This document shows, one piece after another, positions 6,397 to 57,125 of a stretch of 64,000 bases of DNA. Position numbers and translations under genes: made by a program. The DNA lies in the NCBI GenBank assembly GCA_018672055.1, contig JABHGM010000001.1:136884-200883 (forward strand). Direction: 5' to 3'. Source of the stretch: a bacterium (GTDB lineage: Bacteria; Patescibacteriota; Patescibacteriia; UBA1558; UBA10009). The notes beneath the pieces are model-generated. The model was not told the origin of the DNA. It was given only the letters and a program-made list of their open reading frames with translations, and ran no database searches. How positions within the stretch are numbered: position 1 is the first letter of the stretch; every line of letters starts with the position of its first letter.

Positions 6397-7888
<1,492 letters not shown>

Positions 7889-7959
7889 TAGGGAGTATTT
7901 ACTCAGTCATCTTTTTTAAAGATGATCTTAGAGAGGTCGAATACATTTTAATGTATACG

Positions 7960-7992
7960 GGAATTAACATTAATCCTATTACTTTCTAGCTG
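7960..7992 (+). other. 3' arm of the pre-16S processing stem
   Basis: GGAATTAACATTAATCCTATTACTTTCTAGCTG is the reverse complement of the 5' flank at 6277-6313, the usual RNase III-type processing helix. Confidence 0.6.
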
Positions 7993-8000
7993 TTAAAGTG

Positions 8001-8027
8001 GCTGGGTTTTCAAGCCCAGCTTTTTTT
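8001..8027 (+). terminator. terminator-like hairpin between the 16S and the tRNA pair
   Basis: GCTGGG-ttttcaag-CCCAGC followed by TTTTTTT. Confidence 0.4.
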
Positions 8028-8044
8028 GTTATCATTTACCTATT

Positions 8045-8119
8045 GCCACGGTAGCTCAGTGGTAGAGCAGTGGACTGAAAATCCACGTGTCGGCGGTTCA
8101 ATTCCACCCCGTGGCACCA
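8045..8119 (+). tRNA. tRNA-Phe (GAA), CCA encoded
   Basis: GCCACGG acceptor stem, GTTCAATTCC T-loop, anticodon loop CTGAAAA. Confidence 0.9.
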
Positions 8120-8196
8120 GGGCGATTAGCTCAGTTGGTTAGAGCGCTACACTGATAATGTAGAGGTCGGAGGTTCAACTCCTCCATCGCCCACCA
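8120..8196 (+). tRNA. tRNA-Ile (GAT), CCA encoded, directly abutting tRNA-Phe
   Basis: GGGCGAT acceptor stem, anticodon loop CTGATAA, GGTTCAACTCC T-loop. Confidence 0.9.
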
Positions 8197-19769: not shown

Positions 19770-21299
19770 ATGAAAAGAATCACTCTCTTCATTATCGCTG
19801 TCTTAGCTATTAGCCAAGCATCTATAACTATTGAACCCAATATAATCATTGATCAGAGTAACAATACTGGTATTGCAACCGTCTGGATTACAAATGCTAA
19901 TGTAGATATTGCTGGAATTCACCTCGGCCTCTATGATACTGAAAATTTCAATCCTATTACAATTACCAATGTCTACGGCGAGATTTTGGAAAATTTAAAC
20001 TGGTTAACCGGCTGGAATGAAAATGAAATAATGACAGTAATGCTTAATCCAAATACACAGTTTCCAACCGGAAACAATCTTCTAATTAATATTGAATTTC
20101 AAGTTGAAGATGCGGCATGTGTTGTATTAATACCTAATCTAGAAATGCCAGCTTTCGTCTCAATGCAATCATTTAATCTGATTACAGATTATATATTCAT
20201 AAATGATGAAAATTGCGAATTAATTTCTGGTTGTACTGACCTATCAGCGCAAAACTATAACGATATCGCTCTCTATAACAACGGCACATGCGAATACGCA
20301 CCAATTATAGAACATATACCAAACCAATGGTTAACACCAAGCGAACCGTTATTGATTGAACTTAATGCCAGTGATGAGGATGATGATGAACTTACTTATT
20401 CAATAAATGATAATGGACTACTGTCAATCTTGCTAGACTCTAACGTTTTAATAATAGATACTTCTCAGTTAAATTGGGGATTCACTGAAGTCACAGTATA
20501 TGTCAGCGATGACACTTATCAAGACCAAGTCACATTCTCTATTATGGAAAACATGGAGTATGAGACTAGTTATGGAGATGTTAATAATGACGGCATTGTT
20601 AATGTAAGTGATATAGTTACAACTATTTCCATAATTTCTGGTCAATTAACCATGACTGAACAGGCAGACATTAACAGCGATGGTATTGTTAATATCATTG
20701 ATGTAGTTCTCCTAGTAGAAATTGTCTTGGGTTATAATCCTGGACGACTTTCTCCGTCGATAATTGACCTCTTACTTGAAGAAGGTTCTCTGAATACTAA
20801 AGCATCTGGTATCGCCGGTTTTCGACTAACAACTAACGTCGAAGATTTCGAAATTACGAATCATCCTGACAACTGGATACTAACACAATACGATAATCAA
20901 TTAATTATGATAAATCTCGATGGTTCAGAATCTGCTGGTAAATTATTTGAATACTCTGGTAAAATAGAAATCGAAGATGTCTTCCTGATCGGCTGGAATG
21001 GTGTTCAAATTGAAACCAATATTATTACTGTACCGAATGATTTTGAGCTATTCCCAGCTTATCCTAATCCTTTCAATCCTCAAACAACCATTGACTTTGA
21101 ATTGGCTTCTGACTCAAATGTCAAAATATCAATCTATAACTTATCCGGTCGTGAAATAGAAACCCTAGAAAATGGTACTAGACAATCCGGTTATTATTCT
21201 ATGACCTGGGATGCCAGTAGTCAAGCTACAGGCGTTTACCTAGTCAGAATGACTGTCGATAACTTTACCACCACACAAAAAGTGATGTTGGTTAAATAA
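19770..21299 (+). CDS. secreted protein with two dockerin-type Ca-binding repeats and a T9SS-type (Por) C-terminal sorting domain
   Basis: Signal peptide MKRITLFIIAVLAISQA. Dockerin repeats GDVNNDGIVNVSDIVTTISIISG and ADINSDGIVNIIDVVLLVEIVLG. The C-terminus YPNPFNPQTTIDFELASDSNVKISIYNLSGREIETL...GVYLVRMTVDNFTTTQKVMLVK matches the Por secretion tail consensus. GC and C/G-ending codon use look higher than in neighbouring genes. Confidence 0.6.
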   Translation: MKRITLFIIAVLAISQASITIEPNIIIDQSNNTGIATVWITNANVDIAGIHLGLYDTENFNPITITNVYGEILENLNWLTGWNENEIMTVMLNPNTQFPTGNNLLINIEFQVEDAACVVLIPNLEMPAFVSMQSFNLITDYIFINDENCELISGCTDLSAQNYNDIALYNNGTCEYAPIIEHIPNQWLTPSEPLLIELNASDEDDDELTYSINDNGLLSILLDSNVLIIDTSQLNWGFTEVTVYVSDDTYQDQVTFSIMENMEYETSYGDVNNDGIVNVSDIVTTISIISGQLTMTEQADINSDGIVNIIDVVLLVEIVLGYNPGRLSPSIIDLLLEEGSLNTKASGIAGFRLTTNVEDFEITNHPDNWILTQYDNQLIMINLDGSESAGKLFEYSGKIEIEDVFLIGWNGVQIETNIITVPNDFELFPAYPNPFNPQTTIDFELASDSNVKISIYNLSGREIETLENGTRQSGYYSMTWDASSQATGVYLVRMTVDNFTTTQKVMLVK

Positions 21300-48382: not shown

Positions 48383-48411
48383 TTGCTTATATACTTTAAA
48401 AATTGTATAAT
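48383..48411 (+). promoter_or_regulatory. sigma70-like promoter immediately upstream of galU
   Basis: TTGCTT (48383-48388), a 17-nt spacer, TGTATAAT (48404-48411). It would give a near-leaderless transcript for the ATG at 48424. Confidence 0.4.
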
Positions 48412-48423
48412 AATATCATATTT

Positions 48424-49287
48424 ATGACTAAAATTCGCAAAGCAATTATACCAGTAGCTGGTTTTGGAACTAGATTCCTACCTGCTTCAAAAGCTCAGCC
48501 TAAAGAAATGTTGCCTATAGTTGATAAACCAACTATTCAATACATTGTCGAAGGCTGTGTTAAGGCTGGAATAAAAGATATTATCTTTGTTACTTCAAGT
48601 AACAAACGTGCTGTTGAAGATCACTTTGATAATTCAACTGGTTTAGAAAATTGGTTAAAAAAACAAGGCAAAACTAAACAGTTAAATGAAATTAAAAAAA
48701 TTGCTCAGATGGCTAATTTTATTTACATCCGACAAAAAGGACCTATGGGTAATGGTACTCCTGTTTTAAATGCTGAAAAAATAATTGGTGATGAGCCCTT
48801 TATGGTTTTTTGGGGTGATGAATTCTATACTGGTCCTAAATCTTGGGTAAAACAAATGATTGATGTCTATGAAAAATATGGAGATCCAGTTCTAGCTGCT
48901 GTTAAAACTGATAAAGAAGGCCAGGCTCGTTACGGAATTATTGATGGCGTTAAAGTAGATAAAAATATTTATGAAATTAAAAAAGTAATTGAAAAACCTG
49001 GTCCTAAAAAAGCACCTTCTAAATTAGCTTCAGTTGGTGGTTATCTTTTAACACCTGATATATTCCCTATTTTAAAAAAATTAAAACCTAGTAAAGGTGG
49101 TGAAGTATGGCTAGCTGATGCTATTCATACACTAAGCAAACAAAGAGCTATGTATGCCTGTGAAATTGATGGTGAATTATATGATGCCGGAACTCTATTT
49201 GGTTGGTTAAAGGCTAATGTTGATCTAGCTTTAACTCATCCTAAAATAAGTAAAGAATTTAAAAAATATCTTAAAAAAATTAAGTAA
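48424..49287 (+). CDS. galU: UTP--glucose-1-phosphate uridylyltransferase
   Basis: MTKIRKAIIPVAGFGTRFLPASKAQPKEMLPIVDKPTIQYIVEG is the canonical GalU N-terminus. The ORF track starts at 48403, but that start would place the -10 element inside the coding sequence. Confidence 0.8.
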   Translation: MTKIRKAIIPVAGFGTRFLPASKAQPKEMLPIVDKPTIQYIVEGCVKAGIKDIIFVTSSNKRAVEDHFDNSTGLENWLKKQGKTKQLNEIKKIAQMANFIYIRQKGPMGNGTPVLNAEKIIGDEPFMVFWGDEFYTGPKSWVKQMIDVYEKYGDPVLAAVKTDKEGQARYGIIDGVKVDKNIYEIKKVIEKPGPKKAPSKLASVGGYLLTPDIFPILKKLKPSKGGEVWLADAIHTLSKQRAMYACEIDGELYDAGTLFGWLKANVDLALTHPKISKEFKKYLKKIK

Positions 49288-50660
49288 TGAGATTATTTTC
49301 AAACAAAATATTCGTTTTACTCTTAATTAGTACTTTCTTTTTAACTACTGGTTTATCTTGTAAATTATTTCCCGGTAAACAAGCTCCTGCTGCATATACC
49401 AAAGCTCAAACTTTAACTTTTTGGGGTGTCTGGGATACAAGTGATGATTTAGAAGTGTTGATAAAAGATTTTAAAGCTATACATCCAAATATTAAAATAA
49501 GTTATAAGAAGTTTAGATATCAAGAATATGAACAAAAACTTTTAGAAGCTTGGGCTGAAGACAGAGGTCCGGATATATATAGTATTCCAGCTACTTGGCT
49601 TAGAAAATATAAATCAAAAATTACTCCAATGCCGGATAGCACTAAACTTAGTTTTCAAGAAGTAAAAACTACTTTAGGTAAAACTGAAATAAATACCTAT
49701 GTTAGAGATATTCCAACCTACAGTGCTCGTGACATTAAAAATGAATTCGTTGATGTTGTCTATAATGATGTAATAATCGGTGGTAAAGTATTAGGTATAC
49801 CATTTAGCATGGATACTTTAGTTCTTTACTATAATAAAGATTTACTAGATGCTAGCGATATACCTGTACCTCCAACTGATTGGACTGAATTAAAAGAAGC
49901 TGTTAAAAAAATTACTAAAGTAAATAATAATAATGAAATATTACAAGCTGGTGTAGCTTTGGGTGTAGCTGACAATCTACCACATAGCGTTGATATAGCT
50001 TCTTTACTCATGATTCAAAATGGAGCACAAATGGTTGATGCTCGTGGTCAAGTTGCTTTCCATACTTCACCTACTAAAGATAAAAGTTATGCTCCAGGAC
50101 TCCAAGCTTTACAATTCTATCTAGACTTTGCAGATCCAATAAAAGAAGTATATTCTTGGAATAATAATCAAAATGATGCCTTTAATGCTTTTGTCTCGGG
50201 TAAACTTGCTATGTTCTACGGCTATTCATATCACTTACCTCTCATTAAAACTCAAGCTCCCAAATTAGAAATAGATATTGCCCCAATGACTCAGATAGAA
50301 GGTTCTCAAAAAAATATTAATTATACTGATTACTGGGTCTATACTGTTTCTCATAAATCAGCCAATACTGATGCTGCTTGGGGTTTTATAAACTTTGCTT
50401 CAGGTGACAAAGAAGTAACTAAGTATTTAAATCAAACTAAAAAACCTACAGCTTTAAGAAGTTTAATTACAAAGCAAAAAGCAGATCCAGAACTAGCAGT
50501 CTTTGCAGATCAAGTATTAACTGCTACCCATTGGTATAGAGGTAATGATGCTTTAAAAATGGAAGAATTCTTTAAAGAAATGTTAGACAGGCTACCTAAT
50601 GCAGCAGATCCTATTGAAATAATGCAAAACGCAGCTTTAAAAATAAATCAAACTTTATAA
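49287..50660 (+). CDS. ABC-type extracellular solute-binding lipoprotein (sugar-binding family 1), orphan
   Basis: Lipobox LTTGLSC, then TLTFWGVWDTSDD...LEAWAEDRGPDIYSIPATW typical of SBP_bac_1. No permease or ATPase genes are adjacent. The start overlaps the galU stop, and the stop lies 1 nt before the first pilin-like gene. Confidence 0.6.
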   Translation: MRLFSNKIFVLLLISTFFLTTGLSCKLFPGKQAPAAYTKAQTLTFWGVWDTSDDLEVLIKDFKAIHPNIKISYKKFRYQEYEQKLLEAWAEDRGPDIYSIPATWLRKYKSKITPMPDSTKLSFQEVKTTLGKTEINTYVRDIPTYSARDIKNEFVDVVYNDVIIGGKVLGIPFSMDTLVLYYNKDLLDASDIPVPPTDWTELKEAVKKITKVNNNNEILQAGVALGVADNLPHSVDIASLLMIQNGAQMVDARGQVAFHTSPTKDKSYAPGLQALQFYLDFADPIKEVYSWNNNQNDAFNAFVSGKLAMFYGYSYHLPLIKTQAPKLEIDIAPMTQIEGSQKNINYTDYWVYTVSHKSANTDAAWGFINFASGDKEVTKYLNQTKKPTALRSLITKQKADPELAVFADQVLTATHWYRGNDALKMEEFFKEMLDRLPNAADPIEIMQNAALKINQTL

Positions 50661-50661
50661 T

Positions 50662-51417
50662 ATGAAATTATTTATATTAATAATTACTTTGCTTATACTA
50701 TTAAACCCATTAGCAGCTGAGGCTAGTGTCTTACCTGCTTGTACAGCTACTGGTAATTGTGGTTTATGTGACTTTTTTGATACTTTCATTAATATTATAA
50801 ATTGGTTACTAGGCGTTGTTGGTGGAATTGCTCTTTTCTTATTTGGCTGGCATGGTTTTGGTATGATAACTAGCGCAGGTAACCCAGAAAAAGTAACTGC
50901 TGCCAGAAAAGGCATGATGCATACTGTTTTAGGAATAGTTATTATTATTTTCTCTTGGTTCTTAGTTACTATCATAATCGGCATATTACTATCAACACCT
51001 GGTTCTACAGGTGATGATGCTTTCAAAAATACTTTATTTAATAATGAAGCTGCTTGGAATCAATATTGTGTAGGTAAGACTGATATTAAAAAATGCCAAG
51101 GCAGAGGCCTAGGTAGTCCTTGTGGTAGTGGTAACTTCTGTTATCCTGACGATGGTAACAAAAAAGTACTAACTTGTACTAATTCAGCTTTTATAGATAA
51201 TAAAGATGGGGATGCTCTGATTGAGGTCAAGAATGCCTGTGAATATTGGGCCAATAGGCCACTCAACCCTAAAGAAGGTTTTCATAATAATCCATACACT
51301 GGCTATACTTGTTTAGAAAAAAAATTATGTGATCCATATGAAAATTTAGGTGCCAGTTATTGTGCTACTTCTGATGCTGAATGTTGTCTGACGCTCCCCT
51401 TTGATCCTTTTTTATAA
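50662..51417 (+). CDS. VirB2/TrbC-like (T4SS-type) pilin-family paralog 1, with a ~140-aa Cys-rich C-terminal module
   Basis: Signal peptide, a variable segment (ACTATGNCGLCDFF), the helix-loop-helix core LFGWHGFGMITSAGNPEKVTAARKG then IIIFSWFLVTIIIG, and a tail with about 15 Cys. Confidence 0.5.
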   Translation: MKLFILIITLLILLNPLAAEASVLPACTATGNCGLCDFFDTFINIINWLLGVVGGIALFLFGWHGFGMITSAGNPEKVTAARKGMMHTVLGIVIIIFSWFLVTIIIGILLSTPGSTGDDAFKNTLFNNEAAWNQYCVGKTDIKKCQGRGLGSPCGSGNFCYPDDGNKKVLTCTNSAFIDNKDGDALIEVKNACEYWANRPLNPKEGFHNNPYTGYTCLEKKLCDPYENLGASYCATSDAECCLTLPFDPFL

Positions 51418-51431
51418 TAATATAAATAAAT

Positions 51432-51827
51432 ATGATAAATAAAAAAAACATTTCAATTCTTTTCCTAGCTATTCTAATGGCTACTCTAATCATTCCTCTA
51501 CCTTTAACTCTAAATGCTGCTGGTAACTGTGGTAACAGTTATTCTGAAGACGATTCAGGAAGTTGTTTAGAAAATCCTTTAGGCTCAGAAACAATTGATC
51601 TGCCAACTTTATATGGTAGGTTACTTTTCTACGGTGTCCTTTTTGTAACTGGTGGTGTAGCTTTAATTATGTTTGTAATAGGTGGCTTTATGTGGATGAC
51701 TGCAGCAGGTAATCCTGAGAAAATTAAAAAAGGTAAAGACACATTAATGTGGGCTATCTTGGGAATAATATTGATATTTTCTAGTTATTCCATACTTCGT
51801 GCTATCTTTGAAATATTACAATTTTAA
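51432..51827 (+). CDS. VirB2/TrbC-like pilin-family paralog 2
   Basis: Signal peptide, a GNCG-containing variable segment, then the core GGFMWMTAAGNPEKIKKGKDTLMWAILGIILIF. Confidence 0.55.
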   Translation: MINKKNISILFLAILMATLIIPLPLTLNAAGNCGNSYSEDDSGSCLENPLGSETIDLPTLYGRLLFYGVLFVTGGVALIMFVIGGFMWMTAAGNPEKIKKGKDTLMWAILGIILIFSSYSILRAIFEILQF

Positions 51828-51961
51828 ATTATCTAGTTTTATTATTAGAATTATTGTATAATATAACTAGGTTATCCACATTTAAAATAAATTTAAATAA
51901 TATTAATTAAAGTAAATTAAAACAAAAACAAAATTTTAATTTACATTTAAGGAGCAAGTCT

Positions 51962-52351
51962 ATGAAAAAATACTTTTCAAAAAAAAGTATCATGGCTTCA
52001 GCAGCAACTATTCTTTGGGTAGTCCCAATGATAGTTGGCGCACAAGTTGATGCTGACTTTGGATTAGGTTATCCTGCAGCAACTGGCTTGGGCACAAACG
52101 ACTTAAAAGACACTATTATAGCTGTACTAAATGTACTGCTTGGTTTCTTAGGCATAATTGCCGTAATTGTAATCTTACTTGGTGGTTTCAAATGGATGAC
52201 AGCCGCTGGTAATGAAGACAAAGTCGCTGAAGCTAAAAAACTACTTGGCGCTGGTATTGTCGGTATAATAATTATATTATCCGCCTATGCAATTGCCACT
52301 TACGTTATTACTCAGATTCAAACCTCGACCGGTGGCACTTTAATTGAGTGA
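51962..52351 (+). CDS. VirB2/TrbC-like pilin-family paralog 3
   Basis: Strong SD AAGGAG. Signal peptide, then the core GGFKWMTAAGNEDKVAEAKKLLGAGIVGIIIILSAY. Confidence 0.55.
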   Translation: MKKYFSKKSIMASAATILWVVPMIVGAQVDADFGLGYPAATGLGTNDLKDTIIAVLNVLLGFLGIIAVIVILLGGFKWMTAAGNEDKVAEAKKLLGAGIVGIIIILSAYAIATYVITQIQTSTGGTLIE

Positions 52352-52450
52352 TAAACTTTAAAAAACTATAGTTATTTAAAGTCTAGACGTTTTCCTCCTC
52401 TGTTTGAGGGGGAATGGCTTAGACTGTAATGACAACTTATACAAAATTAA

Positions 52451-52864
52451 ATGTTTGAAAAACTATACAAACAGTTAATAATTCGGGCATTATTCTTTGC
52501 CCTATTTTTGTATTTGGTAATACCTTTTAATTTACAAGCTTCCCCTGCTGGTGATATTGCTACTCAAATATTAGAAGATACAGCTGTTGAAGCTAAATTA
52601 ATTAATTCAGCAGACAATGCTTTAAATATCTTTGAAATCTCTGGCTTTGTAATTAATATAGTTTTAGGATTTGTAGGTATAATATTTCTAGTCCTTATAA
52701 TTGCTGGTGGCTATATGTGGATGACTGCAGGAGGTAATGATGAAAAAGTAACTAAAGGTAAATCTCTTTTAACTCAATCAATTATAGCTTTAGCTGTTAT
52801 TCTAAGCGCTTTCCTATTAACCAACTTTGTTATAATAAGATTAATGACTAATCTATGGGGTTAA
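52451..52864 (+). CDS. VirB2/TrbC-like pilin-family paralog 4
   Basis: Core GGYMWMTAGGNDEKVTKGKSLLTQSIIALAVILSAF. Confidence 0.55.
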   Translation: MFEKLYKQLIIRALFFALFLYLVIPFNLQASPAGDIATQILEDTAVEAKLINSADNALNIFEISGFVINIVLGFVGIIFLVLIIAGGYMWMTAGGNDEKVTKGKSLLTQSIIALAVILSAFLLTNFVIIRLMTNLWG

Positions 52865-53526
52865 TTAAAAAAAACTTATTTTTAATTCTAATACTATGTT
52901 TTTTAATTATTCCTTTTTATACTCAAGCTGAAGCTGCTTGTCCAAAAAGTCTTAGTATTCAAGAATGTGTTAAATGGGGTCTAGAACAAACTAGCGCTGA
53001 AGCAGGCTATACATTTAATGAAAATCTTGATTCTCAAAGTATTTCAGAAACTGTAGGTAATATTATTTCAAATATTTTAACCTTTTTAGGTGCTTTAGTC
53101 TTGATAATGATTATTACGGCTGGTTTTCAATGGTTAACTGCCCAAGGCGATGAAGAGAAGCTAAACACTGCTAAATCTAGACTGAAGAATGCATTAATTG
53201 GTTTATTAATAATTGTAGCTGCATTTGCTATTACTACATTTGTAACTAGTAATCTAAAAAATATTATTGATGATGCTACAATACCTGATAATCCTGCTAA
53301 TTATATATGCTCTAATTATGATTATGATGTCTGTATTGATAATGTTGACAGAGCTTGTGGTTATTGGATTCCTGATCAAGGATGCTATCCAAACCCTTTT
53401 GACTGTGATTTACGATATCCTTCAGATTGTGAAATACCTGATCCTGATACAGGCCATGATGTTTGTTTGGGTGAAGGCGGTAACTGTATAATAACGCCCC
53501 AAGGCGATAGTTGTTATTGTAATTAA
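52855..53526 (+). CDS. VirB2/TrbC-like pilin-family paralog 5, with a Cys-rich C-terminal module
   Basis: Core AGFQWLTAQGDEEKLNTAKSRLKNALIGLLIIVAAF, then an ~85-aa tail with 12 Cys (CSNYDYDVCIDNVDRACGYW...CYCN). Overlaps paralog 4 by 10 nt. Confidence 0.55.
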   Translation: MGLIKKNLFLILILCFLIIPFYTQAEAACPKSLSIQECVKWGLEQTSAEAGYTFNENLDSQSISETVGNIISNILTFLGALVLIMIITAGFQWLTAQGDEEKLNTAKSRLKNALIGLLIIVAAFAITTFVTSNLKNIIDDATIPDNPANYICSNYDYDVCIDNVDRACGYWIPDQGCYPNPFDCDLRYPSDCEIPDPDTGHDVCLGEGGNCIITPQGDSCYCN

Positions 53527-53527
53527 T

Positions 53528-54073
53528 ATGAATAAAAAATATATAATTCTGTTTCTAACCTTAATAATCTTACTTATTCCTGTTTTAACATACTCCGCAA
53601 ATATTACAGATATAATAGAAGGGTTAGATAAAACAGCAGAAAAATCACTTTTAATAGATCCTAATGAAGAGGCTACTACAATATATGATATGATTGGACG
53701 TATTCTATTTTTTACTTTAAGCCTTCTTGGTATTATTTTCTTAGGTTTAATTATATTTGGTGGTATTGGTTGGTTAACAGCTGCTGGCAATGAAGAAAAG
53801 ATAACTAAAGCTAAAGGTTTGATGTCTAATGCTTTAATTGGTTTAATAATAATAATTGCTGCATATACTATAGCTAACTTTGTAATATTTACTTTAGCTG
53901 ATAAAATAACTGAGGGCAATGATTCATTATGTATAGAAGCTTCAGGAGAATGCCAAAACCATGCATTGGGTGCCACAGATTGCACAATTAATGGTTCTCC
54001 TGGTACTTATGCTTCTAATTATTGTGGAAGTCAATCAAATGATTCTCTTTATCGTTGCTGTATAGCTAACTAA
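53528..54073 (+). CDS. VirB2/TrbC-like pilin-family paralog 6, with a Cys-rich C-terminal module
   Basis: Core GGIGWLTAAGNEEKITKAKGLMSNALIGLIIIIAAY, then a ~60-aa tail with 8 Cys. Starts 1 nt after paralog 5. Confidence 0.55.
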   Translation: MNKKYIILFLTLIILLIPVLTYSANITDIIEGLDKTAEKSLLIDPNEEATTIYDMIGRILFFTLSLLGIIFLGLIIFGGIGWLTAAGNEEKITKAKGLMSNALIGLIIIIAAYTIANFVIFTLADKITEGNDSLCIEASGECQNHALGATDCTINGSPGTYASNYCGSQSNDSLYRCCIAN

Positions 54074-54079
54074 TAATTT

Positions 54080-54589
54080 ATGTTTTTAAATTTAAAAAAA
54101 TCTTTATTTATTCTAATAATAAGTTTTTTAATACTAAGTCCTTCTTTATTATTCGCTCAATCTCCAGAGGATCCTAGTAATCAACCTAATTATACTTATA
54201 AGCAAATTTGTAAATGGGGTGATAATTTAACTGATTGCTTAGAAGAAAATTATAATACTATTACTGGGACTGAGAATGATGATTTTGAAAAAGTAACTTC
54301 TGCAAGTTTATCTACAAAAATAGGAATTATCATTTCATACGTTTTAGCATTTTTAGGAGTTATTTTCTTAGTTTTAATTGTAATTTCTGGATTTCAATGG
54401 TTAACAGCTGGTGGGAATGAAGAAACTGTAACTACTTCTAGAAAAAGAATTATTAATGCTGTTGTTGGCCTCATTATTATTCTCTCTGCCTACGTTATTA
54501 CTGCTTTTGTTACTGATAGGATAGAAAGATCTATTGATAAAACAAATACTGTTAGTATTAATTTGCCTAGTGACTATTTATCTATTTAA
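54080..54589 (+). CDS. VirB2/TrbC-like pilin-family paralog 7
   Basis: Core SGFQWLTAGGNEETVTTSRKRIINAVVGLIIILSAY. Confidence 0.55.
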   Translation: MFLNLKKSLFILIISFLILSPSLLFAQSPEDPSNQPNYTYKQICKWGDNLTDCLEENYNTITGTENDDFEKVTSASLSTKIGIIISYVLAFLGVIFLVLIVISGFQWLTAGGNEETVTTSRKRIINAVVGLIIILSAYVITAFVTDRIERSIDKTNTVSINLPSDYLSI

Positions 54590-54604
54590 TATTTAATTAT
54601 TTAT

Positions 54605-54976
54605 ATGACTAAAAAAATTATAATTTCATTACTAATACTAATTATCTCTAGTTTTTTAATAATCCCCGCTCTAGCTCAAACAAATATAAATACCAATCTT
54701 GAAGCAGCTGGAGAAGGTGCTAAGTATAATATAGACGTTGATGATAATACTATACCTGAAATAATTGGTAAAGTAGTGGCTACTCTACTGGCTTTTGTCA
54801 CCTCAATTTTTATGATGATGGTTGTTTTCTCTGGCGTTCAATGGATGGTTGCTGGAGGTAATGAAGAAAAAATTACTAAAGCTCGTGGTAGATTAATAAG
54901 TAGTATTATTGGCGTAGGTATAACTGCTGCTGCTTATTTCATAACCTGGTTAATTACTGAAACTTTACTAAAATAA
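54605..54976 (+). CDS. VirB2/TrbC-like pilin-family paralog 8
   Basis: Core SGVQWMVAGGNEEKITKARGRLISSIIGVGITAAAY. Confidence 0.55.
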   Translation: MTKKIIISLLILIISSFLIIPALAQTNINTNLEAAGEGAKYNIDVDDNTIPEIIGKVVATLLAFVTSIFMMMVVFSGVQWMVAGGNEEKITKARGRLISSIIGVGITAAAYFITWLITETLLK

Positions 54977-54979
54977 AAT

Positions 54980-55648
54980 ATGAAATCATTTCTTTTAATA
55001 ATTGCTGTTTGTTTCTTAATCCTAGCACCCTTAACTGTGTCTAATGCTTTAAATTTAGGCCAAGAAACATATTTAGAAAGTTTAGCTGGTACAGCCGGCT
55101 ATCAAATTGATAGTGTTCAATCTAATACCTATCTTGATTCGACAATTGGTAAACTACTAGCAAGTATATTTACTTTAGTTGGTATTTCTTTCTTATCACT
55201 TATCATTGTTTCTGGATTTCAATGGATAAACGCTCATGGTAATGAAGAAAGCGCTAAAAAAGCTAAAGATCGAATAATCCATGCTACTATTGGATTAATT
55301 ATTATTGCTTCTTCCTATTTAATCTCCTTCTTCATATATAATTCAATAAATTCCTCAATTACTGGCGAGGTTAATAACTTTGTTCCAGAACCAGGCTTAG
55401 AATGTATAGATAATACAAATTGTATTGGGCATGAAAATGGACCTTACTGTAACTATAATCAAGCTACTGGTTATTGTGGTGGGTGTACAGATGACGATGA
55501 TTGTTCAAGCCCTACTCCTGAATGTGTACGTCCTCTTATTGGCCCTAGCTCATGTCATGAATGCGTAATAGATGCAGATTGTTCTGATAATTTTGGTCCC
55601 AGTTTTGTTTGTGGTAATTTCGAATGTATAGAAAATAATGATTTTTAA
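54980..55648 (+). CDS. VirB2/TrbC-like pilin-family paralog 9, with a Cys-rich C-terminal module
   Basis: Core SGFQWINAHGNEESAKKAKDRIIHATIGLIIIASSY, then a ~100-aa tail with 13 Cys, including the repeated C-x-E-C...D-x-C motifs CTDDDDCSSPTPEC and CHECVIDADC. Confidence 0.55.
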   Translation: MKSFLLIIAVCFLILAPLTVSNALNLGQETYLESLAGTAGYQIDSVQSNTYLDSTIGKLLASIFTLVGISFLSLIIVSGFQWINAHGNEESAKKAKDRIIHATIGLIIIASSYLISFFIYNSINSSITGEVNNFVPEPGLECIDNTNCIGHENGPYCNYNQATGYCGGCTDDDDCSSPTPECVRPLIGPSSCHECVIDADCSDNFGPSFVCGNFECIENNDF

Positions 55649-55653
55649 TTAAT

Positions 55654-56631
55654 ATGATAAAAAAATATAAAAAAATAATATTAAGCTCTCTAATCCTACT
55701 TTTTTTAATACTGGGAATAAATGTTTTAGCACAAGGTGGTTTTCAACAAGAGTTAATAAATAATATTGCTAGTACTACTGAAATTGTTGGTCAAGGACCA
55801 GGTTACAATACAAACGCTCAAGGTGAGGATTTTTTTGGAGGTATTTTAATTAAAATATTTGGTTATGGAATTAGTTTCTTAGGCGTTTTCTTCATGTTAC
55901 TTATTGTCTACTCTGGATTTCAATGGATGTTTTCTAGTGGTAATGAAGAAAAGGTTACTCAAGCTAAAACTAGAATTACTCAAGCAGTGACAGGTTTAGT
56001 TATTGTCTTAGGTGCTTTTATAATCTCCTATGCTATATTCTCATTCTTGACTACAGAATATTTAGAAACCCCTTCCTCTGGCATTCAAGCTCCTGATGGT
56101 TATCAAGAGCAAATAGCTTGTAGTAATTCTAATAGTGATACGCCTCCTGAATGCGCTGATAGAGGAACTAGAATATATTGTTCTAGCTCTGGTAATTGTG
56201 TTGAATGTTTAGACGACGCACGTTGTGCAGAAGCTCCATTTGAACCGCTCGGCTTAACATCTTGCGACCCAACTTGGAATGTTTGTACTTTCGATTTAGA
56301 TCATACATGTGCTGAAATTACCAACGCTGGCTTATGCATATCTAATGAAAGTTGTAATTGGGCACTGACACCGTCTAACCCAACATGGGAGACAGGTGTA
56401 TGTGTTAATTCAAATGAATATAATTGCACAACTGGACAATGCCCTCAAGATAGGCCATATTGCATAAATAATAATCAACCAGAAGGAGAATATAGCTGTC
56501 ATGAATGCAGCCCTGGTATAGATGCTTCATGTGGTCTTTTAAAAAACTGCACACAGCCATTTCTTGAAGGTGGTGAAGGTATCAATGAAGATGATTATCA
56601 TCTCTACATTTGTACAATTTTTGGTTTTTAA
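55654..56631 (+). CDS. VirB2/TrbC-like pilin-family paralog 10, with a long (~185-aa) Cys-rich C-terminal module
   Basis: Core SGFQWMFSSGNEEKVTQAKTRITQAVTGLVIVLGAF, then a tail with about 24 Cys including CVECLDDARC and CHECSPGIDASC, the same motif seen in paralog 9. Confidence 0.55.
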   Translation: MIKKYKKIILSSLILLFLILGINVLAQGGFQQELINNIASTTEIVGQGPGYNTNAQGEDFFGGILIKIFGYGISFLGVFFMLLIVYSGFQWMFSSGNEEKVTQAKTRITQAVTGLVIVLGAFIISYAIFSFLTTEYLETPSSGIQAPDGYQEQIACSNSNSDTPPECADRGTRIYCSSSGNCVECLDDARCAEAPFEPLGLTSCDPTWNVCTFDLDHTCAEITNAGLCISNESCNWALTPSNPTWETGVCVNSNEYNCTTGQCPQDRPYCINNNQPEGEYSCHECSPGIDASCGLLKNCTQPFLEGGEGINEDDYHLYICTIFGF

Positions 56632-56643
56632 ATAATAAAACAT

Positions 56644-57051
56644 ATGAAAAAAACAATATTAAAAATTTCTAGCCTTTCCCTTATTATAGGATTAGGCTTT
56701 ACAAAAATAGCTTTGGCTATGCCAACGTTAAATCCTTTAGCCAGAATGAAACACACTGCTGATGTTATTGGTCTGTCCACTGTAAATGTTCATCCAGCTG
56801 AAGTAGCAGCTAATATTATTGCCATCATACTCGGATTAGTAGGTATTATATTTTTTGTGATGATACTTTTTTCTGGTTATGAGCTTATGACTTCTGGTGG
56901 TAACGAAGAAGTAGTGGGTAGAGCTAAAAAAAGATTACAATATGCAATTATTGGAATTGTAGTAATCTCTCTTTCATACATAATAACTATTTATGTTTCT
57001 GAATTAATAAACAGAGCTACATGTGAAGGTTATTATTGTATTAATGAATAA
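56644..57051 (+). CDS. VirB2/TrbC-like pilin-family paralog 11
   Basis: Core SGYELMTSGGNEEVVGRAKKRLQYAIIGIVVISLSY, with the conserved Trp replaced, and a short C-terminal CEGYYCINE. A hairpin and T-run (AGACTGACTTCAT/ATGAAGTCAGTCT) follow the stop. Confidence 0.5.
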   Translation: MKKTILKISSLSLIIGLGFTKIALAMPTLNPLARMKHTADVIGLSTVNVHPAEVAANIIAIILGLVGIIFFVMILFSGYELMTSGGNEEVVGRAKKRLQYAIIGIVVISLSYIITIYVSELINRATCEGYYCINE

Positions 57052-57125
57052 TATATTATTTAAAGACTGACTTCATAAATGAAGTCAGTCTTTTTTATTT
57101 ACTAAATACTTGTTAAACTAGTAAC

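Follow-up and report, generated by a model that had tools for sequence, protein, structure and literature searches.

A window of 64,000 nt from a Patescibacteria genome (NCBI GenBank assembly GCA_018672055.1, contig JABHGM010000001.1, positions 136,884 to 200,883 of the forward strand) contains a tandem array of eleven genes, designated P1 to P11, that encode VirB2-like pilins, and in five of these (P1, P5, P6, P9 and P10) the two-helix pilin core is followed by a long, cysteine-rich C-terminal tail. The observation is real and statistically solid, and the assignment of the cores to their family is secure. The tails are genuine, conserved modules of paired cysteines fused to the core, as the initial annotation of this sequence had proposed. 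Judging from the sequences, we consider it probable (about 0.6) that they are extracytoplasmic, disulfide-rich display domains carried on VirB2-like subunits, with contact to a surface or a host as their likely role; an adhesin function is conjectural.

Arrays of 2-11 VirB2-like genes were previously recorded in 383 Patescibacteria assemblies and likened to the pilin variation of Bartonella and Anaplasma (Quinonero-Coronel et al. 2025, PMC12102498), and a six-gene array located within the cluster of type IV secretion system (T4SS) genes of Southlakia epibionticum was found to be essential (Wang et al. 2023, PMC10633639; PMC12857230). With the published arrays the one in the window shares the family (PF18895), the phylum, the tandem co-oriented genes and the low identity between paralogs; it agrees with the published definition of an array (at least two tandem PF18895 or PF04956 genes in a Patescibacteria genome), and its eleven genes stand at the top of the published range. 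Unlike the Southlakia array, which lies inside a T4SS cluster, it follows the gene of a solute-binding protein (SBP) and is not adjacent to T4SS genes. The published array descriptions (PMC12102498) make no reference to C-terminal domains, cysteines or solute-binding proteins, and full-text literature searches returned nothing relevant to a cysteine-rich tail on a VirB2-like pilin, an arrangement that the initial annotation had also taken to be new. Pilin arrays are already known; the cysteine-rich tails, their modular gain and loss and their link to an SBP appear to be undescribed.

Many arrays are ordered sets of distinct subunits in which defined positions carry conserved, swappable outer domains, predicted to be disulfide-rich, and a sugar-type binding protein goes together with the arrays that bear tails. 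VirB2-like arrays are essential for epibiotic life in the one Patescibacterium tested genetically, and the tail domains are candidate host-range determinants. A subunit with a built-in display domain would also be a new structural idea for conjugative-type pilins.

Cysteine-rich tails on a VirB2-like core

The eleven ORFs (open reading frames) span 50662-57051, all on the forward strand, with a spacing of -10 to 134 nt and one overlap only. PF18895 (T4SS_pilin) was matched by 11/11 paralogs over the two-helix core, with 27.8-47.7 bits against a Pfam gathering score of 26.6 bits. No paralog reached the gathering score of PF04956 (TrbC/VirB2; 27.9 bits), the best being P2 (21.3 bits) and P3 (21.0 bits) with E ~3e-4, and by these scores the kinship to that family is at the superfamily level only. 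The NCBIfam profile NF045849 (Mbov_0395 family, pilin-like proteins of mycoplasma integrative and conjugative elements) gave 42.5 bits with P5, above its cut-off of 40, and 25-36 bits with the other paralogs; the core hairpin aligns over all 80 positions of this profile, which covers the core only and not the tails. Such similarity agrees with the monoderm origin that has been published for the T4SS of Patescibacteria.

Hydropathy segments and N-terminal sequences gave every paralog the layout of a VirB2-type pilin: a Sec-type, signal-peptide-like N-terminus and two long hydrophobic helices separated by a short conserved loop (xxGNEEK) with 3-4 K/R. By the positive-inside rule the loop should be cytoplasmic (or in the filament lumen) and both mature termini should lie outside the cell, in line with the outward position of the tails assumed in the initial annotation. 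The cores are widely divergent from each other in the core alignment. Taking the tail as the sequence past the second hydrophobic helix, the paralogs are as follows.

P1, 50662..51417, forward strand: PF18895 core; tail at nt 51007-51414 (136 aa, 11 Cys)
P2, 51432-51827, forward strand: PF18895 paralog without tail
P3, 51962-52351, forward strand: PF18895 paralog without tail
P4, 52451-52864, forward strand: PF18895 paralog without tail
P5, 52855..53526, forward strand: core; tail at nt 53260-53523 (88 aa, 10 Cys), with C-Y-C as its last residues
P6, 53528..54073, forward strand: core; tail at nt 53903-54070 (56 aa, 6 Cys), with CC as its last residues
P7, 54080-54589, forward strand: 21-aa tail without Cys; two N-terminal Cys
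P8, 54605-54976, forward strand: PF18895 paralog without tail
P9, 54980..55648, forward strand: core; tail at nt 55349-55645 (99 aa, 12 Cys)
P10, 55654..56631, forward strand: core; Pro-rich linker of ~20 aa; tail at nt 56059-56628 (190 aa, 20 Cys)
P11, 56644..57051, forward strand: core; the tail, of 12 aa, has a single Cys pair (CEGYYC)

Cysteine makes up 8-12% of the five long tails vs 0.51% of 24 other ORFs of the window, and the tails of P2, P3, P4, P7 and P8 (1-21 aa) have 0 Cys. The pattern of five cysteine-rich paralogs therefore stands as first annotated, with corrected ranges: 56-190 aa and 6-20 Cys, in place of 60-185 aa and 8 to about 24 Cys. The tails of P5, P6, P9 and P10 are acidic (K+R 1-4%), that of P1 being the exception. 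Additional cysteines precede the core in P5 (two in the mature N-terminal segment) and in P1, where three further Cys belong to a conserved N-terminal motif, LPACTATGNCGLCDF. The P1-type consensus LP[AP]C[ST][AT]TGNCG[IL]CDF, with its three Cys just ahead of the first helix, was seen in the window (50662-50790) and in six related loci (L005, L006, L007, L009, L025 and L034).

The strings originally quoted as a repeated motif (GCTDDDDCSSPTPEC, CHECVIDADC, CVECLDDARCAEAP and CHECSPGIDASC) were all found, solely in P9 and P10. As a pattern common to the five tails, C-x-E-C...D-x-x-C did not hold: it is absent from P1, P5 and P6 and belongs to the P9/P10 lineage only. The bare frequency of C-x-x-C was rejected as evidence by itself, since chance gives a similar count in such cysteine-rich sequence (4 observed in P9 and P10 vs ~3.5 expected, a rough estimate); the C-x-E-C motif is regarded as real because it is conserved across homologs. 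Both proteins are made of repeated small units, as had been suggested. The P9 tail can be read as three units of ~25 aa with 4 Cys each, linked by C-x-x-C, and the P10 tail has two conserved C-V/H-E-C-x(5-7)-C sites, its N- and C-terminal thirds being mutually related (hhalign E = 5.5e-5). An AlphaFold2 model of P10 from a 21-sequence alignment had a pLDDT (predicted local distance difference test) of 77-91 over most of residues 150-300, with short hairpins and helices, and low values at residues 139-150, the low-confidence, Pro-rich linker, whose consensus in P10-type proteins is [FY]L-x-x-P ... P-P-x-G. The single-sequence model of P9 was unusable, with a tail pLDDT of 27-51 over most of the length.

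Searches with the five tails against Pfam gave no family at E up to 10, save an 11-residue match to Dumpy_DPY (E = 0.47); no NCBIfam family covered the tails in scans of the full-length proteins, and PDB sequences, searched with the P10-type profile and with the tails of P9 and P1, yielded no match with an E below 1. By these profile searches the tails matched no known family of cysteine-rich repeats (among them EGF, knottin, granulin, LDLR-A, furin-like, VSP and Dicty_CTDC), the first two of which the initial annotation had named as candidates. A word-indexed search, a method ill-suited to such sequences, returned nothing for the P9 tail, itself included, and 3 proteins for the P10-type tail alignment, and is uninformative on the occurrence of the domain outside pilins.

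Classical VirB2/TraA/TrbC pilins (PF04956; those of F, T and RP4) likewise have a signal peptide, a hydrophobic hairpin, a basic loop and outside termini. They measure 70-120 aa when mature and are often cyclised or acetylated. To our knowledge they carry no appended domain, and we know of adhesion in these systems only from separate proteins such as VirB5 or TraN, whereas in the window the subunit itself bears the fused domain, which can reach 190 aa. Modular type IV pilins (PilB and PilC of Streptococcus sanguinis, and minor pilins with grafted domains) combine a pilin core with a C-terminal functional domain exposed on the filament; they would follow the same design principle by analogy only, their fold and machinery (prepilin peptidase) being unrelated. 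Giardia variant-specific surface proteins, ciliate surface antigens and furin-like or TNFR-type modules consist of extracellular repeated Cys units with periodic CxxC. The tails recall them in having a variable number of units, and no sequence relationship was detected in the Pfam and PDB sequence searches.

Conservation of the tails and order of the arrays

In an index of public assemblies, 137 blocks contain the exact P10 protein, with identical gene calls and on contigs of up to 0.2-1 Mb. P1, P5, P6, P9 and P10 each occur in identical form on 62-84 contigs (up to 963 kb; NCBI, JGI, ENA and Logan), and every named record among these copies is annotated as hypothetical protein. With such copies from four sources, the same ORFs from independent gene calls, and core and tail kept in one frame in orthologs at 30-64% identity, an origin of the tails by frameshift into downstream ORFs, or by chimeric assembly, was rejected; nothing was found in its favour, and it deserves practically no credence.

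In a relative at 62-64% identity (L002, L003 and L004) the order P8-P9-P10 is kept, and the orthologs retain every tail Cys, 12 in P9 and 20 in P10; the non-Cys tail positions are 40% and 55% identical (P9 and P10, respectively) vs 78-80% in the cores. An exhaustive phmmer search with P10 yielded 14,117 relatives at E up to 0.001. Among the best 150 (representatives), ~50 have cysteine-rich tails, nearly all with even Cys counts. A set of ~17 representatives share the count of 20 Cys with the P10 tail and align along its length. An alignment of 15 P10-type tails (22-41% identity) has 16 invariant Cys columns; the two C-V-[EQ]-C sites have invariant Cys, with E/Q in 15/15 and 14/15 sequences, and Asp/Asn are enriched in the loop that follows. 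One P10 ortholog has just the first 59 positions of the tail profile left. P9-type orthologs vary in length and have 8 to 20 Cys, and by our reading of the alignment their variable blocks resemble ~25-aa, 4-Cys units, two to five per tail. For the P1-type and P6-type tails, orthologs with conserved Cys frameworks were found, both types ending CC, and the L005 ortholog of P6 retains 6/6 tail Cys; the P5 tail had no homolog among the fetched related loci. When the P10-type tail profile was run against all ORFs around the arrays (~1.3 Mb), pilin ORFs alone were matched, in a set too biased to establish exclusivity.

A scan of species-representative genomes gave 78 loci, all from Patescibacteria metagenome-assembled genomes (MAGs), including the Parcubacteria group and Komeili-, Magasanik-, Falkow-, Uhr- and Buchananbacteria. 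Using an HMM built from the eleven window cores, 601 pilin ORFs were identified in 79 loci, mostly in arrays of 6-12 genes. In 491 of the 601 the tail measures at most 25 aa and has no Cys, while 69 of the 70 tails longer than 45 aa are cysteine-rich (at least 4 Cys). The Cys count is even in 60/67 tails (binomial p = 1e-11). Five of the seven odd-count tails are of P1 type, in proteins with exactly three N-terminal Cys, so that 65/67 proteins are even. This parity favours disulfide bonding, and the odd tail of P1-type proteins together with their three N-terminal Cys points to a disulfide that joins the N-terminal segment to the C-terminal domain. In the tail family, counts of 6, 10, 18 and 22 are the commonest. 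By blastp, 87 cysteine-rich tails fell into 45 clusters, the largest of which (23 tails) comprises the P9 and P10 types.

Some further features of related loci and proteins were recorded. Many of the 6-Cys tails (L013, L019, L034, L038, L076 and others) end C-P-x-G-x-x-C-C, and some, such as those of L013 and L019, have an earlier C-P-S-G element; by eye the pattern recalls granulin-type half-modules. In the public protein set, five single polypeptides of 555-966 aa (P0010, P0011, P0025, P0072 and P0128) consist of 6-10 tandem pilin cores, with about two hydrophobic segments per core and no internal signal peptides, and are either true polyproteins or read-through gene calls. Many related MAG records (L004, L006, L011, L014 and others) are titled 'uncultured Gammaproteobacteria bacterium', and one 'Candidatus Binatia'; these titles are probably wrong, and the pilin arrays and neighbours match those of Patescibacteria-labelled loci.

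The gene order of the window is kept in the closest arrays (L005-L010), and more distant arrays do not map in this way. With the window paralogs P1-P11 written as W1-W11 and assigned by best-hit mapping, the orders were W1, 2, 3, 4, 7, 6, 7, 8, 9, 10 in L005, W1, 2, 3, 4, 6, 7, 8, 9, 10, 11, 11 in L007 and W1, 2, 3, 4, 7, 8, 9, 10, 11 in L009. Because the closest arrays are collinear with the window, their paralogs are old lineages in a conserved order and not recent local duplicates. The fixed gene order and positional orthologs of these arrays contrast with the published comparison to Bartonella- and Anaplasma-like variation, and ordered arrays are a reason to question the reading of antigenic variation. 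Orthologous arrays differ mainly in their tails, one of the expectations attached to the initial annotation, the tails being gained, lost and resized on collinear cores. The ranges of tail length among orthologs are listed below.

W1 orthologs: 22-182 aa
W6 orthologs: 0-60 aa
W7 orthologs: 8-57 aa
W9 orthologs: 65-144 aa
W10 orthologs: 66-172 aa
W11 orthologs: 2-72 aa

Orthologs of P7, which has no tail Cys in the window, have tails of 45-57 aa with 6 Cys in L005, L007, L008 and L009, and orthologs of P11 elsewhere have tails of 40-72 aa with 4-10 Cys. Across the arrays, conservation is highest in the tail-less P3 (50-70% identity), a candidate for the bulk subunit.

Proposed display on a pilin-like subunit and alternative readings

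We propose that an ordered operon encodes a sugar-type SBP followed by eleven VirB2-like (PF18895) two-helix subunits, and that in P1, P5, P6, P9 and P10 the outside C-terminus would extend into a cysteine-rich domain, in P10 through a short flexible linker. The domains would be built of small units, most likely held by disulfides: in P9 and P10, ~25-aa, 4-Cys units strung together by C-x-x-C, and in P6 and at the end of P1 a 6-Cys framework ending CC. Their place would be the cell surface or, in a VirB2-type filament, its outer face, and they would most likely serve contact with or recognition of a host cell or surface glycans; alternatively they may form a stable outer coat. The anatomy, the conservation, the Cys parity and the synteny are observed, while topology, disulfide bonding, display at the surface and any binding function are predictions. 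The tail-less paralogs, chiefly P3, would probably supply the bulk subunits, and units may have been added, deleted and swapped during evolution on a fixed set of cores. A capacity for extracytoplasmic disulfide formation in Patescibacteria is indicated by MdbA-like oxidoreductases, which are enriched in genomes of the candidate phyla radiation and often adjoin VKOR (bioRxiv 10.1101/335083). In the window scans no disulfide oxidoreductase or VKOR was found, which is uninformative with 64 kb of ~960 kb covered.

The initial annotation placed the tails at the tip of a pilus, which is not implied. In F-type pili the C-terminus is on the outer face of every subunit (PMC5018250), and the tails would coat the shaft unless they belong to minor subunits.

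Several results weigh against display on VirB2-type subunits. By a rough estimate, an F-like filament with a 190-aa domain on each subunit would offer ~670 square angstroms of outer surface per subunit against a cross-section of ~950, a crowding that favours a mixed filament with tail-less bulk subunits. In fold searches the matches were swamped by the helical hairpin and uninformative on the tail. When 50 ORFs of the window, each of 100 aa or more, were scanned against Pfam (a set without the rpoB/rpoC-sized ORFs and some short ones, within 64 kb of a ~0.96-Mb genome), no VirB4, VirB6 or coupling protein came up, and no T4SS ATPase, VirB6 or coupling protein was found among the conserved neighbours within 8 kb in 79 loci. 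The conserved neighbours belong to envelope and sugar functions and not to secretion; genes of the neighbourhood include galU, DUF2079 (glycopolymer-formation-like), PAP2, Wzy_C and a polysaccharide flippase. Because T4SS genes were found neither in the window nor near the related arrays, assembly of a pilus by this locus is hypothetical. The only FtsK-type ATPase in the window has the full chromosomal FtsK domain set. The genes and elements flanking the array in the window are the following.

galU-like UTP-glucose-1-phosphate uridylyltransferase gene, 48403..49287, forward strand: upstream of the SBP gene
Carbohydrate-type solute-binding protein gene (SBP_bac_1/SBP_bac_8), 49287..50660, forward strand: ends 1 nt before P1
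Terminator-like hairpin, 57062-57093, forward strand: 14-bp stem followed by a T-run, 11 nt past the P11 stop codon

The hairpin is the likely end of the operon, and downstream of it follow the genes of a DUF2079 membrane protein and of a PAP2 protein. An SBP homolog lies 0-185 nt upstream of the first pilin gene in 32 of the 66 loci with enough upstream sequence, and a galU homolog occurs upstream of the array in 32 related loci, at a median distance of 1.4 kb. The adjoining SBP was recorded in 22/24 arrays with cysteine-rich tails vs 10/42 tail-less arrays. A second array type, with 6-7 tail-less pilin genes and no adjoining SBP, was seen in L011, L014, L015, L017, L020 and ~35 other loci, among them Falkow-, Uhr- and Buchananbacteria-like MAGs, and often stands beside a divergently transcribed gene for a polytopic membrane protein of ~540 aa without Pfam match.

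The strongest alternative is that the paralogs are not T4SS pilus subunits and that, with the SBP, they form a separate surface or membrane apparatus, in which the hairpins anchor disulfide-rich ectodomains in the cytoplasmic membrane for host-sugar capture or envelope organisation. The SBP gene directly before P1, the association of SBP with tail-bearing arrays, the envelope and polysaccharide neighbours and the lack of nearby VirB4, VirB6 and coupling protein genes would all agree with it. The cores, however, are bona fide PF18895 members, homologous arrays in Saccharibacteria are essential and lie inside a T4SS cluster (PMC10633639, PMC12857230), and no ABC permease or ATPase was found among the conserved neighbours of the SBP-array junction to accompany the SBP. 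Distance from virB4 is weak evidence, because pilin genes are located away from virB4 in ~40% of the assemblies that encode both (PMC12102498). On this evidence we regard a separate apparatus as possible but rather unlikely. In its most specific form, the SBP and a fixed series of 8-12 VirB2-fold subunits would make up a distinct conserved surface apparatus of one branch of Patescibacteria, with interchangeable disulfide-rich ectodomains at set positions, as a heteropolymeric or decorated filament or as a membrane platform, used to contact a host or to capture nutrients, and independent of, or loosely coupled to, a classical T4SS; this proposal is speculative, and we hold it with considerable doubt. 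If it were true, the tails would represent modular disulfide domains of bacteria that had so far gone unrecognised as a family.

It is less plausible that the tails are removable pro-regions or cargo, which would be cleaved and discarded or released as disulfide-rich peptides (toxin or signal). C-terminal processing is established for some VirB2/TrbC pilins, and the C-terminus of RP4 TrbC is trimmed before cyclisation; the conserved, flexible Pro-rich linker of P10-type proteins might accommodate a site for cleavage. In the operon, though, no protease gene was found, TraF-like or other, and the tails are large (up to 190-298 aa) with strongly conserved frameworks, unlike short discarded propeptides. 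The covalent link suggested by the odd tail Cys and the three N-terminal Cys of P1-type proteins also fits retention of the tail on its subunit.

Very improbable, finally, is the idea that the cysteine clusters bind metal (Zn or Fe) or Ca, a possible property according to the initial annotation, instead of forming disulfides. The C-x-x-C pairs and the conserved Asp/Asn-rich loops (C-x2-[DN]-x-[DN]-C) of the P9- and P10-type tails point in this direction, as do the Cys counts of P9 and P10, which are multiples of four. Tetrahedral metal sites are disfavoured because the counts are often not multiples of four, including the commonest ones in the family, and the even parity of the proteins, the predicted extracytoplasmic location and the fact that by eye the tails are not His-rich argue in the same sense; no metal- or Ca-binding repeat family was matched at E up to 10. 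In addition to disulfides, the acidic loops may bind Ca.

Other features of the window

The window is a low-GC (~30%) segment of a Patescibacteria chromosome with housekeeping genes, tRNAs and a 16S rRNA gene. In the stretch 6398-8196 this gene is followed by tRNA-Phe, tRNA-Ile and then protein-coding genes; no 23S or 5S gene lies within the window, and the rRNA genes appear to be unlinked. At 19770-21299 the window encodes a 509-aa protein with a dockerin type I domain and a Por_Secre_tail domain (C-terminal sorting by the type IX secretion system), a combination unexpected in a lineage thought to be without an outer membrane.

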